DNA of 56,517 bases, taken from an uncultured bacterium. GTDB taxonomy: Bacteria; Patescibacteriota; Minisyncoccia; Phycocordibacterales; PALSA-1337. Under the pieces are notes generated by a model. The model ran no database searches and was not told the origin of the DNA. It worked only from the letters and a program-made list of their open reading frames with translations. This document shows positions 13,932-25,923 of this stretch, one piece after another; within the stretch, counting starts at the first letter, position 1, and each line of letters begins with the position of its first letter. A program made the position numbers and the translations under genes. Location of the stretch: contig CAIMKX010000009.1 in assembly GCA_903842025.1 (NCBI GenBank), positions 1-56,517 on the forward strand, in the 5' to 3' direction.

Positions 13932-15638
13932 TTACATCTTTTCCGGCACCCCGATACCCAATAGGTTCAAACCATTTTTAATGGTAATCGAAACCGCTTT
14001 GGTCAATGCCACTTTGTAGAGTGAATCTGGATCCTTCTCATCAACAATCTTTCCTTGACCGTACCAAGAATTGAAAGCGCCGGCTAATTCCGTCAAATAT
14101 GTAACTATAAGATGCGGCGCATATTCCTTCCCCGCCCTTTCGACAACCTCAGGAAAACGTACGATCAATTTCTCAACCAGATTTGGTTTGTGATCTTGAG
14201 GAACTTTGAACTCTATCGGCTTATTGGAATCGATAATCCCAAAAGATGCAGCTTTTTCCAAAATAGATTTGGCGCGAACGTAAGTGTATTGGAGATATGG
14301 ACCGGAATCACCCTCGAAAGAGATCGACTTGTCGAAATCGAAGATAATATCGCCGCCGATCGCTTGGCGCAGAATGGAATACTTGATAGCACCGATCGTG
14401 ACCATGTCGGACATGGTCTCGTCCACATTTCGATCTTTAACCTTCTCGAGAACAAGCGCCTTGACGTCATTGATCAGGCTTACCGCAGTGATCACTTCCC
14501 CCGTCCTTGAGGACATCTTACCGCTCGGCAGTCGAAGCATCCCGTGGCCGATATGAAGAGTTTTCCCCGCCAATTCCGGAAAAATTAGTTTCATGGCTTC
14601 AAGCAAGACATTGAAGTAATCGTTGATCTCATTGCCGGTAAGAACGATCGACTTTTCATAAGGATATTTGTCATGCTTGATCTTCACCAAACCAAGCTCT
14701 TTGGCCTCGTAGGTCGGCAGACCGTTTGAATTGACAAAAACTCTTGTATGGAGTTTTGGATTGACTTTCTGTGCCTCAAAAACGACAGCGCCATCGCTTT
14801 TTTCAAAGACTTTTCCTAAATTATCCTCAACCATTTGTTTGCCATAGCCTGCGACTTCGCTTTCAGAGAAGAAATAGTCGAACTTCATTCCCAAAGCTTC
14901 ATATCGCTTGGCGAAGAATTCCAAGGACTTTTTCTTGCCGATCTCATAGACTTCATTGATGGCCTTGTCGCTTTTCTCATAAAGTTTCTTGTTGACCTCT
15001 TCAACGGACTTTTTGAAATCCGTGTCAGCGTCATAGAGTTTATTACCGGCGACATAATCAACACCCAAAGCTAATCCGTTTAAATCAGACTCCGTGTGTA
15101 TATCCTTCTTTTTATAAAGAAAATGCGCCACAGCCTTTGCGACATGCAATCCCACGTCGCCTTGATAACAAGCTCTTTTGACCTCTGCGCCATTGGCTTC
15201 GACGATCCTGGAAACAGATTCGCCGATCGTGTTGCTCATCAAGTGGCCAACGTGGAATTCCTTGAAAGGATTTGGATCAGTAAATTCGATTATCGTCTTT
15301 TGCTTTTTAAGATTATTGTTTGAGCCAAATTTATCCCCTTCCTTCAGGGCTCTTTTGATATTTTCCGCGAAATATTCCGCCTTCAAGAAGAAATTGATGA
15401 ATCCCGGACCAGCAATCTCCACTTTTTCTACGAATTTCGGCTGGATCTTCTTGAATTCAATGACGATCTTTTCTGCCAGTGCTTTCGGAGAGATTCCAAG
15501 CGGTTTGGCATTGAGCATCGCTGAATTGCTAGAAAAATCCCCATATTCAGGGTTTTCGGGATAGTTAAGTTTCGGCTGTTCTTCAATCCCACATATCTGA
15601 GCGGCCTTCATCAAAGAATCCAACAATTCTTGTTTCAT
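13932..15638 (-). CDS. argS: arginyl-tRNA synthetase
   Basis: 568 aa. FHVGHLMSN (HIGH-like), N-terminal Arg_tRNA_synt_N-like region, C-terminal DALR-type anticodon-binding domain. Confidence 0.95.
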   Translation of the reverse strand: MKQELLDSLMKAAQICGIEEQPKLNYPENPEYGDFSSNSAMLNAKPLGISPKALAEKIVIEFKKIQPKFVEKVEIAGPGFINFFLKAEYFAENIKRALKEGDKFGSNNNLKKQKTIIEFTDPNPFKEFHVGHLMSNTIGESVSRIVEANGAEVKRACYQGDVGLHVAKAVAHFLYKKKDIHTESDLNGLALGVDYVAGNKLYDADTDFKKSVEEVNKKLYEKSDKAINEVYEIGKKKSLEFFAKRYEALGMKFDYFFSESEVAGYGKQMVEDNLGKVFEKSDGAVVFEAQKVNPKLHTRVFVNSNGLPTYEAKELGLVKIKHDKYPYEKSIVLTGNEINDYFNVLLEAMKLIFPELAGKTLHIGHGMLRLPSGKMSSRTGEVITAVSLINDVKALVLEKVKDRNVDETMSDMVTIGAIKYSILRQAIGGDIIFDFDKSISFEGDSGPYLQYTYVRAKSILEKAASFGIIDSNKPIEFKVPQDHKPNLVEKLIVRFPEVVERAGKEYAPHLIVTYLTELAGAFNSWYGQGKIVDEKDPDSLYKVALTKAVSITIKNGLNLLGIGVPEKM

Positions 15639-15927
15639 TGGCCCATTCTAGCAAAAACGCGTATTTTTCTCTCATTGACAAATAATAACTCATAGGATAC
15701 TGTCACTAAAGACGCTTTTTTGTTTTGGGGAAAAGTGCTCCTCGCCCTCCAAGGAGTAGAGCACCTGGTAGCTTCCGTTGCAGGCAGAGCGGAAGCTACC
15801 TACCCACCCTCTCATTACCCATTGACACATACCATGGTGTCTGGGTCGTGGGAGGGTTTTTTCCTTGAGGTCTCCTTAGGCCCGCCGAAACTCATCAGAG
15901 CGAAGGGGGCTCCTCAAGGAAGAGTAC

Positions 15928-15963
15928 AAAAAAAGCCCGACACCATCTGCATGTATGTCGGGC
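15928..15963 (-). terminator. intrinsic terminator downstream of glyA
   Basis: On the minus strand, gcccgaca-N13-tgtcgggc is followed by a 7-nt U-tract, 72 nt after the glyA stop. Confidence 0.7.
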
Positions 15964-16034
15964 AAGGAACTCATACAGTAACCGGACAAACGCCATTACT
16001 CGCATCGTATGCGCCCGTCCATCCATGAAATATC

Positions 16035-17342
16035 CTACTCTCCTCTCAAAATCTTGTCAATGCTTTTGGCGATGTTCTTGAAATCTTTCTCTTTTCTTCC
16101 CCGAGTCGTCTCGGCGGCAGTGCCCAGTCGGATGCCGGAAGGATCCGCCGGCGGTCTCTGGTCAAAAGGTATAGCGTTCTTATTGACAATAATTCCGGAC
16201 TTTTCCAATCTATCACTAGCTTCTTTTCCGGCGACTCCACCGGCGCCTTTTTCATTCTTCTTGCCGTCATTCCAAGTGTCCATAAGGATCAAATGCGTAT
16301 CAGTTCCTCCGGAAATCAAACGCCAGCCGAGATTCTTTAATTCAGCGGCTAATACGGAAGCGTTTTTGACTATTTGTTTGGCATATTTCTTGAATACCGG
16401 ACTGGCCGCTTCCTTCAAAGCCACCGCCACCGCGGCAATCTGATTGATATGCGGACCGCCTTGCAAGCCGGGAAAAACAGCCTTGTCTATTTTCTTGTCC
16501 AATTCTCTAGCGTCCTTCCTGACGAAAATCAAAGCCGCCCGCGGACCACGAAGAGTCTTGTGAGTAGTCGTTGTAACGACATCAGCGTAAGCGAATGGCG
16601 AAGGATAGACTTCTCCGGCCACCAAACCGGCGATATGCGACATGTCGACCATCATTATGGACTGGGCCGAATCGGCAACTTCGCGCATCCGCTTCCAATC
16701 GATCGTCCTCGGATAGGCCGTAAAACCGGAAACGATGATGGCCGGCTTTTCCTTCATGGCGATCTCGCGCAACTTGTCATAATTCAAAGTCTCTGAAACC
16801 GGATCAAGCTCATAAGGAACCTGTGTCCAGAATTTCCCCGTTGCCGAGACTTTGTGGCCGTGAGTGAGGTGACCGCCATGCGCCAGTGACAGGCCCATTA
16901 TTTTGGGTAATTGGGGGTTAGAATTTGGAATTTGGAATTTGGAATTTGGAAGATTTGAAACTGAAAATTTGAGATCGCTGGTTATTGGTGTTTGGTTATT
17001 GATTATTGGTGTAATACTACCGATTAAACCCACGTACACTGCCAAGTTTGCCGGCGAACCCGACAAGGCTTGGACATTAACATGCCATTCTTTGGGATCC
17101 AATTTGAATAGTTTAAGAGCGCGTTCTTGGCAAAGCATCTCTATCTTGTCAGTAATTTCATTGCCACCATAATAGCGCTTGCCAGGATAGCCTTCGGCGT
17201 ACTTGTTGGTCAATTCGGAGCCCAGAGCCTCCAATACATCCTTGGAGACATAGTTCTCCGAAGCGATCAAGTTTATGACCTTCTTCTGCCTTTTCTTCTC
17301 GGTTTCTATTAGTTTTTTGATTTGTGGGTCTTTCATGGCCAT
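16035..17342 (-). CDS. glyA: serine hydroxymethyltransferase with in-frame repeat-derived insertion
   Basis: Motifs [29 protein letters not shown] and [12 protein letters not shown] (PLP lysine). Carries ~34 extra residues between GLI and [10 protein letters not shown]. Confidence 0.95.
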   Translation of the reverse strand: [435 protein letters not shown]

Positions 17343-17364
17343 ATGGTATCACTATTGGAAAAAT

Positions 17365-17397
17365 AAAAAAGGGCCCGTCCACAATCGTGGCGGGTCC
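17365..17397 (-). terminator. intrinsic terminator-like hairpin 22 nt upstream of the glyA start
   Basis: Minus strand reads GGACCCGCCAC-GAUU-GUGGACGGGCCC followed by U6. Confidence 0.6.
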
Positions 17398-17490
17398 TGA
17401 GCATCATATACCTGATCTGATCTAACGAACTATTTACTAGACTAACTCCATATGGATAATATTGCAATACAAGTCGAAGTTGAACAGATT

Positions 17491-17525
17491 AAAAAAAGGG
17501 CCCGGCACTGTCCCGTGTCGGGTCC
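17491..17525 (-). terminator. second, related intrinsic terminator-like hairpin
   Basis: Minus strand reads GGACCCGACACGGGACAGUGCCGGGCCC followed by U7. The sequence is related to the hairpin at 17365-17397. Confidence 0.6.
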
Positions 17526-17720
17526 TTGGTTCTGCGGTCTGTACTATCCTGCACTTTTCGTCAACAACTCCTACCAAGCAAAAGCTTAACTCTCAATACG
17601 GATTAACGCAAGGGATTTATCCACCATGTCAGACATGGTAATAGATTTGCCAAAATAAACATCGGCATGTAGGCTGTGGCAAGAATAGTCATTGCACTTC
17701 AAATAATGTAAGATATCGAT

Positions 17721-18605
17721 ATGAAAACTTTCAAAGAACGAACTCCGGATACTCAATACAGAAATGTCCTGAAGCTCATCATGGAGACAGGCACCGAGGT
17801 CAAACCGATTCAAGGCGAAAAGTCCAAGATGGTCGTCGGCGCTCAGATGCGATTCAATCTCGATAACGGATTCCCTCTCATAACCGAAAGAGACCTTTCC
17901 AAGCTCATGAATGGCGCCCTGGCCGAACACTTTGCTTTCCTCCACGGTGCCCATACTCAAACTGAACTTGAGAAATGGGGCAATAAATGGTGGAGCCGCT
18001 GGGTCACAGCCGAAAGATGCGCCATCTTTGGTTTTCCACAAGGAGAACTTGGCCCGGGATCATATGGTCCAGCATGGACCGCCTTCCCTACAGCCGAAGG
18101 TAAACCCTTCAATCAGATCACTGAGGTAATGCAACAGCTCAAGGAAATGCCTTTTTTGAGAACCCATTGGATTTCAAATTGGATTCCTCAGTACACGATC
18201 CAACATTCGAAGTTGAAGCGCAAAGTCGTCGTCGCTCCTTGCCACGGCAACTTACACATCTTTGCCTATCCGGAAACCAAGGAAATCTCGGTACACCATA
18301 TTCAGAGAAGCGGTGATATGCCCGTTGGAGTAGCCTTCAACCTCATACAGTACGCCGCATTCACTCTCATGGTCGCCCAAATCATGGGCTACAAAGCCAA
18401 AGAGTTGGTCTACACCGTCTCTGATGCCCATATCTATGAGGGTCAATACGAATTGGTCAAGGAATTGCTCGCCCGCGAGCCTCGAGCCTTCCCGACGGTC
18501 ACCTTGGATCCGTCGATTACGGACATCATGGATTTCCGGCCGGAGCACTTCACTCTGACCGATTACAATCCTCATGAAGCTATGAAGATTCCAACTCCGG
18601 TCTAA
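17721..18605 (+). CDS. thyA: thymidylate synthase (ThyA) family protein, divergent
   Basis: Collinear with E. coli ThyA as I recall it: QMRFNL..GFPL, APCHG (catalytic Cys), QRSGD, AFNLIQY (Asn177 equivalent), SDAHIY and REPR. Confidence 0.8.
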   Translation: MKTFKERTPDTQYRNVLKLIMETGTEVKPIQGEKSKMVVGAQMRFNLDNGFPLITERDLSKLMNGALAEHFAFLHGAHTQTELEKWGNKWWSRWVTAERCAIFGFPQGELGPGSYGPAWTAFPTAEGKPFNQITEVMQQLKEMPFLRTHWISNWIPQYTIQHSKLKRKVVVAPCHGNLHIFAYPETKEISVHHIQRSGDMPVGVAFNLIQYAAFTLMVAQIMGYKAKELVYTVSDAHIYEGQYELVKELLAREPRAFPTVTLDPSITDIMDFRPEHFTLTDYNPHEAMKIPTPV

Positions 18606-23970: not shown

Positions 23971-24837
23971 TCATTTCTTCTCGCACAAATCCATCAAATT
24001 CTCAAAAAGTGAAAGCACGGTCATCGGCCCCACTCCTCCCGGAACCGGCGTGATGGCGGCCACAACTTTGTTCACGGCCTCAAAATCGACGTCACCGACC
24101 AGTTTTTTGGTTTCAATCTCGTCATCCAGTTTTTCACCGACCAAGGTGTTTATCCCGACATCTATAATGACTTGGCCTTTCTTGACATTCTTTTTCTGGA
24201 TCAAGCCAGGCTTGCCTGCTACACAAATAACGACATCAGCCACCTTGGTCTCTTTGGCCAGATCCTGAGTTTTGCTGTGACAAACGGTCACCGTAGCGTT
24301 TTCATTGAGACACATGGCGATGACCGGCTTCCCCACCAAAGTTGATCGGCCGATGACCGCGACTTTCTTACCGAACAGATCGATCTTGTAACTCTTCAAA
24401 AGAGTCCGGATGCCCCTTGCCGTGGCCGGTAAAAGAGCGTCTTCGTTGCCATCGAGCCATCGTTTGACGCTATGAGCCGTCAAAGCATCGACATCTTTGC
24501 TCGGCAGGATTGAATCAATAACGGCGTCATCGTCAATTTCTATGGGTAGAGGCAACTGGACGATTATTCCTTGAATCGTAACGTCGGCATTACATTCCTG
24601 AACGATACTTATAAGCTCGCTTTGCGGAACCGTCTCCAAAACCTGAATATGCTTGACATTGACGCCGATCTTCTTCCCGAAGGCTTTCTTGGCGTTAATA
24701 TATGAATTGGAATCGTCGCGATTGCCCGCCTGGATGATGGCCAAAGTCGGCGTACTTGAAAGCGCCGAAACCCTTTTGGCCAGTTCCGGAACGCGTTCAT
24801 CGCGCGTTTTGCGTCCGTCGAGGATGGTAGCTGACAT
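23971..24837 (-). CDS. folD: bifunctional methylene-THF dehydrogenase/methenyl-THF cyclohydrolase
   Basis: ILDGRK.., VQLPLP, GRSTLVGKPV and TPVPGGVGPMT motifs. Confidence 0.95.
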   Translation of the reverse strand: MSATILDGRKTRDERVPELAKRVSALSSTPTLAIIQAGNRDDSNSYINAKKAFGKKIGVNVKHIQVLETVPQSELISIVQECNADVTIQGIIVQLPLPIEIDDDAVIDSILPSKDVDALTAHSVKRWLDGNEDALLPATARGIRTLLKSYKIDLFGKKVAVIGRSTLVGKPVIAMCLNENATVTVCHSKTQDLAKETKVADVVICVAGKPGLIQKKNVKKGQVIIDVGINTLVGEKLDDEIETKKLVGDVDFEAVNKVVAAITPVPGGVGPMTVLSLFENLMDLCEKK

Positions 24838-24879: not shown

Positions 24880-25923
24880 TCAATCCCAGAATATTCTCTC
24901 GATTTGACCTTGAATTTTTTCGCTTCGGCAATGTTTCAACATTCCAAGATATGAACATATTGAATTCGTAAGCTTTTCCTGGTCTATCAAACCAGTCTCT
25001 AAATCCAACCTTAATCTCGCAATCTTTTTAAGCATCCTTTTCTTCGTGCTTGTTCGGAGAACTTTGTAATGTGGCAAAGAAACGTATCCAAGAAAGTCCG
25101 TCCCCTGATAAATCTTTCTTATTTCTAATTTTCGTGGATGTAAATCCAAATCCATTTCACTTTTAAGAAAATCAGCAATTACCGAAATATGACTTTTAAG
25201 TTGTTCTTTTGATTCATCAAGAATCACAAAATCATCACAATATCTTATGTAATATCTGGCTTTGAGTTTATGTTTAATAAATTGGTCGAATTCATTCATA
25301 TAAATATTGGCAAAAAGCTGACTGGTAACATTACCTAAAGGCAAACCCTTCTCTGGTGTGTGATTAAATGATTCAATAATTTCTTGAATGAAAATAAGCA
25401 ATTTTACGTCCTGAATTTTTCCTGAAATTAGTCGAATTAACTTATCATGATCAACAGAATCAAAGAATTTTCTGATGTCACATTTCAAGACATAAGCTTG
25501 CCGTGTGAAATTTTGCGAAACTTTTCGTGAAAATACCTCCAATCGTTTGACTCCAGCATGAGTCCCTTTTTGATTTCTGGAAGAATAAACGTCATAGATA
25601 AATGAAGAATTAAATACATGGTACAATTTCCGGTGCACCGCCTGGAAAAGCACCCGATCGCGGACACTGGCAATATGAATGGTCCGTTTCTTTGGGTCTT
25701 GAATTATTGAAACCTTGTAAGGATCAAGTCTGAATCGGCCATTTACCAAATCCTCATGTAATATAAAAAGGTTTTCTTCCAAACGAAGATTGAATTCAGC
25801 CACATCTTTATTTGATTTCTTACCTTTACTGAATTCTTTCCAGGCGGCAAAAATATTTTCGATGGAAATTACATCACAAAAATCACAACTATTATGACCC
25901 CCCCCCGACACCACATTGCCCAT
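24880..25923 (-). CDS. diversity-generating retroelement reverse transcriptase
   Basis: RT motifs including LPLGNVTSQ ([I/L]GxxxSQ, DGR-type motif 4) and YCDDF (YxDD). The 347-aa protein has no maturase or endonuclease domains. It is adjacent to the TR/VR pair. Confidence 0.9.
   Translation of the reverse strand: MGNVVSGGGHNSCDFCDVISIENIFAAWKEFSKGKKSNKDVAEFNLRLEENLFILHEDLVNGRFRLDPYKVSIIQDPKKRTIHIASVRDRVLFQAVHRKLYHVFNSSFIYDVYSSRNQKGTHAGVKRLEVFSRKVSQNFTRQAYVLKCDIRKFFDSVDHDKLIRLISGKIQDVKLLIFIQEIIESFNHTPEKGLPLGNVTSQLFANIYMNEFDQFIKHKLKARYYIRYCDDFVILDESKEQLKSHISVIADFLKSEMDLDLHPRKLEIRKIYQGTDFLGYVSLPHYKVLRTSTKKRMLKKIARLRLDLETGLIDQEKLTNSICSYLGMLKHCRSEKIQGQIERIFWD

Follow-up and report, generated by a model that had tools for sequence, protein, structure and literature searches.

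A translated tract of heptanucleotide repeats within serine hydroxymethyltransferase of a patescibacterial genome

Introduction

How does repeat-like DNA come to lie, in frame, in the middle of an enzyme as conserved as serine hydroxymethyltransferase (SHMT)? The question is raised by the glyA gene on contig CAIMKX010000009.1 (assembly GCA_903842025.1), analysed here as a single stretch of 56,517 nucleotides (the window). A preliminary description of the window had pointed to a low-complexity insertion of about 34 residues just ahead of the loop at the pyridoxal 5'-phosphate (PLP) site, and had likened it to the Rickettsia palindromic elements (RPEs). The genome carrying the window (G000) comprises 0.95 Mb in 56 contigs (C numbers) and is 99% complete; judging from the names that sources give to its closest homologues, it belongs to the Patescibacteria/Paceibacteria, within the candidate phyla radiation (CPR). 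We compared it with the 119 closest homologues of the glyA product, with representatives of 24 congeneric species (G numbers) and with metagenomic orthologue loci (L numbers). We find that the segment is built of seven-base units and that other species carry arrays of differently spelled units at the same codons.

An insert of heptamer units in SHMT

The open reading frame (ORF) in question (Table 1) is an SHMT. Its match to the Pfam profile PF00464 reaches 514 bits against a cut-off of 27, solved SHMTs in the PDB align to its product at E 1e-114, and an AlphaFold model of the product superimposes on them with template modelling (TM) scores of 0.82-0.84. The motifs IASENY and GGHLTHG and the PLP-lysine motif are all intact, and the product combines the Pfam profile with the fold-type I PLP fold and the catalytic motifs of the family. 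The gene is present in a single copy in G000 (one match). The profile match is split into two stretches, and with every solved SHMT the aligned portion consists of residues ~2-106 and 147-433, leaving residues ~105-147 unaligned.

Between the anchors SGxxANxxVY and GGHLTHG, the protein has 52 residues against a baseline of 17, a net gain of 35. The baseline, typically TALVPQGGKIMGMSLDH, is found in 65 of the 119 closest homologues, in the solved SHMTs and in the distant homologues compared (L078-L081, one of them eukaryote-like); it is also the spacing of E. coli GlyA, as quoted in the preliminary description. The insertion is missing from most orthologues. The earlier claim of an in-frame insertion of about 34 residues also stands, with the gain adjusted to 35 and the reading frame unbroken across all 117 nt. 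The limits it gave (16899-17021) were nearly right; they take in the native codons of K147 and I148, and the insert itself spans 16905-17021. The segment is confirmed as a real, extra one, encoded by seven-base repeats.

On the coding strand the insert can be written as ~17 consecutive 7-nt units in a single register (Table 1). Tandem Repeats Finder (TRF) reports 4.4 copies of GAATTTG, with 100% matches, at 16921-16951. It also calls a periodic stretch at 16979-17010, in agreement with the two repeat motifs first noticed; the chance expectation in the window for a 21-mer of the GAATTTG array is 0.03. The periodicity extends beyond these copies. Identity at a lag of seven nucleotides (lag-7 identity) is 0.56 for the insert, compared with 0.31 +/- 0.04 for shuffled versions, of which 0/10,000 were as high. 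With the perfect array excluded (16952-17021) it is still 0.48, a value reached by 5 of 10,000 shuffles, and it is 0.24 in the remainder of glyA. The insert DNA is indeed unlike the surrounding coding sequence, as had been claimed: its GC content is 32.5% versus 49% in the remainder of the gene, and its plus strand holds only 6 C. Its translation is a polar loop of 39 residues in which N, Q, S, T, P and I abound.

What had been suspected of a palindromic nature did not hold up. Within 16860-17060 no inverted repeat lies inside the insert, the sole find being a 10-nt palindrome outside it, and the insert mRNA is unstructured (minimum free energy -2 kcal/mol, z 0.04). The absence of an inverted repeat argues against a hairpin or a miniature inverted-repeat transposable element (MITE) as the identity of the insert. 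An RNA element or intron was rejected on account of the failure of the insert to fold and by the lack of any Rfam match at E <= 1 across 15600-17800.

Table 1. Features of the glyA locus, reverse-transcriptase genes of the same genome, and repeat units at the orthologous SHMT site of metagenomic loci
Feature	Position	Strand	Description
glyA, serine hydroxymethyltransferase	16035..17342	minus	435 aa; PF00464 E 2e-154
Codons of helix 95-107 (SGSPAN phosphate-binding helix)	17022..17060	minus	directly precede the insert; DSSP
Inserted segment, codons G108-P146	16905-17021	minus	39 residues in place of a 4-residue turn
CAATAAY-type heptamer array	16981..17015	minus	ATTACAC CAATAAT CAATAAC CAAACAC CAATAAC; codes for 12 residues
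Four degenerate units	16953..16980	minus	CAGCGAT CTCAAAT TTTCAGT TTCAAAT, coding SDLKFSVS
Perfect (CAAATTC)x4.4 array	16918..16952	minus	(GAATTTG)n on the plus strand; codes for 12 residues; in the common register CTTCCAA ATTCCAA ATTCCAA ATTCCAA ATTCTAA
Right junction	16897..16917	minus	CCCCCAA TTACCCA (P-Q-L-P), then native AAATAAT (K-I-M) and GGG (G)
Codons of strand 147-151 (KIMGL) and GGHLTHG loop (156-162)	16857..16904	minus	directly after the insert; DSSP
Reverse transcriptase	24880-25923	minus	RVT_1 only; adjoins folD (23971-24837)
Reverse transcriptases, other two	C50:6517-7131 and C38:15492-16103
L039	SHMT site		ACCAATA x4.3
L040	SHMT site		CAATAAC x5.4
L041	SHMT site		CAAATTC x2.1 plus CAATAAC units
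L042	SHMT site		GGAGCTA x5.6 and AACCAGT x8.7
L043	SHMT site		CTAACTC x7.1
L045	SHMT site		TAACCAA x5
L073	SHMT site		AACCCTA/TCCCCTA
L044	SHMT site		degenerate tract

The AlphaFold model (76 aligned sequences; mean predicted local distance difference test score, pLDDT, 84.9) predicts the insert to be a disordered loop on an otherwise confident, SHMT-like fold: residues 110-141 have pLDDT <50 and no secondary structure, consistent with the loop that the preliminary description had raised as a possibility. By DSSP on the model, helix 95-107 precedes the loop and strand 147-151 follows it; the motifs on either side, S94-N99 and G156-G162, are invariant in the SHMT alignment. Enzymes of fold-type I bind PLP where the strands of the sheet have their C-terminal ends. 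Since the insert is N-terminal to the strand that bears GGHLTHG at its C-terminal end, the modelled base of the loop should face away from PLP, on the far side of the sheet. Residue A154, eight residues past the insert at the opposite end of that strand, is presumably the counterpart of P130 in soybean SHMT8, an assignment that fits the offsets of the alignment with solved SHMTs. P130 is a folate-site residue of the soybean enzyme (PMC11366715).

Other species have heptamer arrays at the same codons

Of the 119 closest homologues, 54 have a lengthened turn where the query carries its insert. Among the 24 congeneric representatives the 17-aa baseline predominates, and none of the 24 has a Q/N-rich tract at this site. 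Heptamer arrays at these SHMT codons occur in metagenomic orthologues of at least eight other species, and their units differ from one species to the next (Table 1). The conserved argS order beside these glyA loci, with thyA nearby, indicates that they are orthologues. The heptamer-type loops are of low complexity, span 27-62 aa between the anchors and vary in sequence, and their DNA has lag-7 identities of 0.41-0.62 (0.27 in the degenerate L044 allele).

The tracts are similar in more than period. All heptamer-type tracts adjoin the native AAAT(A/C)AT GGG, the K-I-M-G codons, and several of them, that of our query included, end in Q-L-P-K (CA(A/G)(T/C)T(A/T)CC(A/C)AAA). When the alleles are aligned from the right, ...TTACC(A/C)A AAAT(A/C)AT GGG is shared by the query, L044 and L045, and L041 and L042 show sequences that differ little from it. 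The query insert further shares an exact 23-nt match, CAATAACCAAACACCAATAACCA, with the insert of L040, its CAATAAY-type array being the portion common to the SHMT genes of other species, and an exact match of 15 nt with that of L041. Query and L041 also have an identical order of units, from CAATAAC-type through CAAATTC-type to the QLP junction. These collinear, partly identical arrays at the same codons speak against a recent landing in this genome, and their distribution indicates that the site is old. In fact, relatives do share a homologous segment, which the preliminary description had thought of as a possible objection to a genomic repeat, but the CAAATTC array does match genomic repeats (see below).

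We note that CAATAAT units match the native AAATAAT heptamer at 6/7 positions, in phase, in the query. Those of L041 are also in phase, with 5/7 matches to the native AAATCAT found there; other alleles are out of phase. This hints that the native AAATAAT codons may have seeded the array.

Fifteen alleles whose loops at this turn are not repetitive (23-37 aa between anchors; classes IPPKKIxLPGxxNPExLVPSK, VPRGG... and LGATHVK...) served as a control; their lag-7 identities are only 0.13-0.30. Together with the 54/119 lengthened homologues, these low values identify the turn as a general length hot spot, of which heptamer DNA is one class of occupant. The first of the classes is a non-repetitive 15-aa extension conserved in >20 sequences (P0008-P0061, L061-L077), and it may be structured and functional.

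A metagenome scan for the flanks of the query insert (with N{10,40} between) returned no alleles of other copy number. The identical insert is also encoded on another ENA contig, of 1845 nt, although that contig may not be independent of this assembly.

A filled and an empty allele differ by a recombined block

Two glyA genes from groundwater assemblies, L045 (filled) and L046 (empty), are 99.6% identical over their first 270 nt and 99.1% identical over their last 640 nt, whereas a ~330-nt block around the loop is only 83-85% identical. The two genes form a clear recombination mosaic and do not differ by a clean insertion or excision. In a FastTree phylogeny of SHMT with the loop masked, heptamer-type alleles are scattered among empty ones, a scatter that such mosaics would explain. 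Independent gains might have been argued from the same tree; we did not use this argument, as recombination of the kind seen between L045 and L046 confounds the gene tree.

Heptamer arrays across the genome

Period 7 accounts for 265 of the 696 TRF arrays of G000, the next commonest being period 9 (n=82). The main unit families include ACTAGGG, AAGAGGT, AAATTAG, AAAATGT and AAATTCC, among others, and 49 hairpins have arms made of complementary heptamer arrays, with unrelated loops. The arrays are predominantly intergenic: 40 of 255 lie within long ORFs versus ~171 for random intervals, a roughly four-fold depletion. The glyA array thus belongs to an intragenic minority, whose 40 members are in frame within genuine genes, for the most part essential ones; Pfam-confirmed, in-frame arrays are found in SecA, CTP synthase (PyrG), LepA, a GT4 glycosyltransferase, RecR, GatA, PheS and TrmD, as well as in DnaE, TopA, a UvrD-nuclease, RNase J and Dus. 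Complete inverted pairs are read in frame in LepA (C44:28078-28169), PyrG (C42:3509-3603) and DnaE (C39:5941-6027). The LepA element is of the GAATTTG/CAAATTC family, like the glyA array; it encodes ...KNLEFRETQQNSFGKIPNSKFYIPNS... and is missing at that site in many congeners. Moreover, a 75-nt hairpin with arms (GAATTTA)3 ... (CAAATTC)n lies at C13:120-194 within the 3' part of the 16S rRNA gene (C13:1-571), where the Rfam SSU match takes up 571 nt for 494 model positions.

Of the glyA insert itself, only the 28-31-nt CAAATTC array has partners elsewhere in the genome. These include C1:31236, C12:44761, C44:28080, C1:32234, C13:164, C48:47639 and C48:11518 (86-100% identity; eight places in all on C1, C12, C13, C44 and C48, with E values from 8e-10 to 3e-5), with shorter matches on C38 and C35. 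Identity is 100% with the arrays at C1:31236 and C12:44761. Two genes, one encoding a membrane protein and the other pilin-like, have arrays of this family at their 5' ends (C1:31236, C38:8012). The remainder of the insert matches at <=17 nt (E >= 0.4), and no full-length copy occurs elsewhere in G000. The expected link to genomic repeats is therefore real for the (GAATTTG)n array but does not make the insert a copy of a dispersed element. The likeness once drawn to the cores of an intergenic 'family A' is weak, amounting to 14-17-nt matches at E 0.4-1.7.

The unit families are patchily distributed within the genus. In a search of G000 and the 24 congeners for three-unit patterns (up to 2 mismatches, overlapping matches), (GAATTTG)3 occurs 14 times in G000, nine times in G021, once in G014 and in none of the other 22 congeners. 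(TAGGGAC)3 is found 43 times in G000 and four times in G002, and (AGAGGTA)3 41 times in G000, 14 in G002, nine in G006, two in G010 and one in G003, the remaining congeners having none of either.

No Y1_Tnp/RAYT or TnpB gene was found in G000. The genome does contain three full reverse-transcriptase ORFs (RVT_1; 338-365 aa), one of them in the window (Table 1), and nothing was found that links these ORFs to heptamer arrays. The best NCBIfam match of the window ORF is to a group II intron reverse transcriptase, below the cut-off; judging from its sequence, it looks like a stand-alone enzyme related to group II introns or diversity-generating retroelements.

Discussion

We consider the glyA insert to be, probably, an old and tolerated in-frame heptanucleotide microsatellite, shaped by slippage with frame-restoring survivors and with alleles exchanged by recombination. 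Slipped-strand mispairing would lengthen and shorten the tract and change its spelling, and only frame-restoring changes would survive, whether made by compensating indels or in steps of three units (21 nt, 7 aa). A recent expansion in this lineage would account for the four perfect CAAATTC units, while filled and empty alleles would be swapped between close relatives by homologous recombination. The loop would be tolerated because it joins the strand at its N-terminus, across the sheet from the PLP site, and its peptide would have no required function of its own.

Several points weigh against this reading. The GAATTTG 7-mer is present at ~10 loci of G000, at several in the congener G021 and at none in 22 others, a patchiness for which pure slippage in situ is insufficient and which indicates dispersal or conversion. 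The loop might conceivably have a function, and its solvent exposure and distance from the active site follow from topology and pLDDT, not from coordinates. Old sites filled with genome-specific units likewise suggest some copying or homogenisation between loci. A further-reaching version of this idea, which we regard as rather improbable, holds that the sites are ancient and draw their units from a genome-specific vocabulary, implying an active process that copies or homogenises 7-nt units genome-wide. The loci sharing such a vocabulary would, again with rather little likelihood, number dozens, from intergenic hairpins to essential genes and the 16S rRNA gene itself. The process might, at similarly long odds, be gene conversion between arrays or templated synthesis, for which the three reverse transcriptases of G000 would be speculative candidates.

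The patchiness of heptamer families among congeners is also what proliferating repeats would produce, and a recent in-frame landing of an RPE- or MITE-like mobile element in glyA would account for the empty site in most orthologues, for the (GAATTTG)n array being 100% identical to those at C1:31236 and C12:44761, and for the whole hairpin elements with arms of the same family in LepA (in frame) and in the 16S rRNA gene. Such a landing is nevertheless unlikely. The insert has neither an inverted repeat nor a target-site duplication, no full-length copy was found elsewhere in G000, and Y1/RAYT and TnpB genes were not found in this 99% complete genome. Half of the insert (the CAATAAC units and QLP junction) is homologous, in the same codons, to inserts of other species, and near-identical filled and empty genes differ by a recombined block instead of a clean insertion. 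It is also quite unlikely that the loop is a selected, lineage-specific extension serving as a flexible tether, in partner binding, or as a modulator of oligomerisation or folate access. The IPPKKIxLPGxxNPExLVPSK loops, conserved as protein with DNA that is not periodic, do indicate that extensions at this turn can be maintained, and 54/119 closest homologues are lengthened there. The heptamer-type loops, in contrast, are hypervariable in sequence as in length (27-62 aa between anchors), of low complexity and predicted to be disordered, and what they have in common is periodicity of the DNA and not a peptide motif.

Four perfect 7-nt units in a coding region, 7 not being a multiple of 3, might instead act as a contingency switch that turns glyA off and on by slippage of +/-1 unit. 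Precedent exists in neuO (PMC13001214), and arrays of the same family stand at the 5' ends of the membrane-protein and pilin-like genes mentioned above. We regard phase variation as very unlikely, given that glyA is a single-copy core metabolic gene, that the tract is short and mid-gene, and that similar tracts are found in DnaE, SecA, PheS and other genes that could not be switched off without killing the cell. Short tandem repeats can, finally, be mis-assembled. An assembly artefact or chimera is nonetheless scarcely credible here: the frame is intact over 117 nt, homologous DNA in the same codons occurs in independent assemblies of other species, and the separate ENA contig, perhaps not independent, carries the identical insert.

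Among the closest known systems are the heptanucleotide long simple sequence repeats (SSRs) and the short tandemly repeated repetitive (STRR) arrays of cyanobacteria (Rehm et al. 2015, PMC4692102) and the intergenic TAACTGA arrays of marine Beggiatoaceae (MacGregor 2015, PMC4679880). The former article (PMC4692102) further refers to GGGAATC repeats of Xanthomonas and Nostoc, to Mrazek et al. 2007 and to Calothrix repeats, and both articles discuss the hypothesis that polymerase slippage favours 7 nt. The arrays of G000 are similar in their tandem 7-nt units, their genome-wide excess of period 7, their mostly intergenic location, their frequent inverted pairs able to form hairpins, and their variation in length and spelling between close relatives. 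However, STRR and long SSR arrays are described as intergenic and from large cyanobacterial or gammaproteobacterial genomes, whereas here a composite tract is translated in a universally conserved enzyme, with dozens more in-frame tracts in essential genes, in a 0.95-Mb CPR genome.

We read the insert as RPE-like in outcome but unlike an RPE in structure and origin, so that the analogy proposed in the preliminary description survives in part. RPEs, reportedly described by Ogata et al. in 2000, are 100-150-bp palindromic elements with full-length copies. As with RPEs (mentioned in PMC1458961 and PMC1166351), repeat DNA is read in frame in housekeeping proteins, tolerated in loops and lacking in many orthologues, and it touches a large number of genes in a reduced genome. 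Unlike them, the glyA insert has neither an inverted repeat nor a full-length copy, and orthologous tracts occupy the same site elsewhere. The neuO gene of the E. coli K1 prophage CUS-3 resembles glyA in carrying 7-nt tandem units within coding sequence; there, the frame is kept in multiples of three units, each three encoding a 7-aa repeat, and tracts of 3-53 units are phase-variable (PMC13001214). The neuO tract is long and 5'-terminal, in an accessory gene for surface modification, in contrast to the short composite tract in the middle of a core enzyme described here.

A literature search found no paper on heptamer arrays in CPR/Patescibacteria. The turn has a single length in the SHMTs compared from E. 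coli, Bacillus, plant and human sources; in one CPR clade it has become the seat of a translated and persistent microsatellite, and the glyA insert is one case of a genome-wide habit that places 7-nt arrays in genes for replication, translation and secretion and in rRNA. New here are three things: the recombination mosaic, the difference between heptamer-type and non-repeat loops at a single site, and the patchiness of unit families across the genus; the mosaic also reveals homologous recombination at work within groundwater CPR populations. In annotation, heptamer inserts should not be mistaken for contamination, frameshifts or introns. To protein engineering they offer a natural map of insertion-tolerant loops in essential enzymes. 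As for the mutation biology of tiny genomes, every perfect tract puts a single-copy essential gene at risk of frameshift, and still such tracts persist across species.

Further observations on heptamer arrays

Arrays of related kinds were noted at other places. In the argS gene of a related species (L042:2323-2356), a perfect (AAAGTCA)x4.9 array is followed by (CAGAACG)x3.6. The (TAGGGAC)n family forms MITE-like hairpins with conserved ends, GACTAGTTTT / AAAACTAGTC, at C3:12-61, C43:1-52 and ~20 internal sites; they occur at contig ends, nearly all lie outside long ORFs, and the TAGGGAC unit presents TAG in both orientations. Two other repeat-encoded peptides recur in frame: 'PPFSKGDSPTG...SPFEKGGGRSxAEAGGF' in SecA (C12), DnaE (C39) and Dus (C21), and 'IPAKAGIQ...LDSRLRGNDK' in SecA and in LepA of the congener G021.

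At C12:44761-44949, inverted arrays (TTTGGAA.../...ATTCTAA) flank 117 nt of native sequence coding for the N-terminus of the GT4 glycosyltransferase. Host gene sequence can thus form the 'loop' of an array pair, and this segment might be invertible. Heptamer arrays enclose a GC-rich hairpin (CTTGCCCT.CG.AGCTCG...) at C35:7301-7372 (RecR) and C38:7955-8028. Read in frame in RecR, the hairpin recalls small elements that insert into heptamer tracts.

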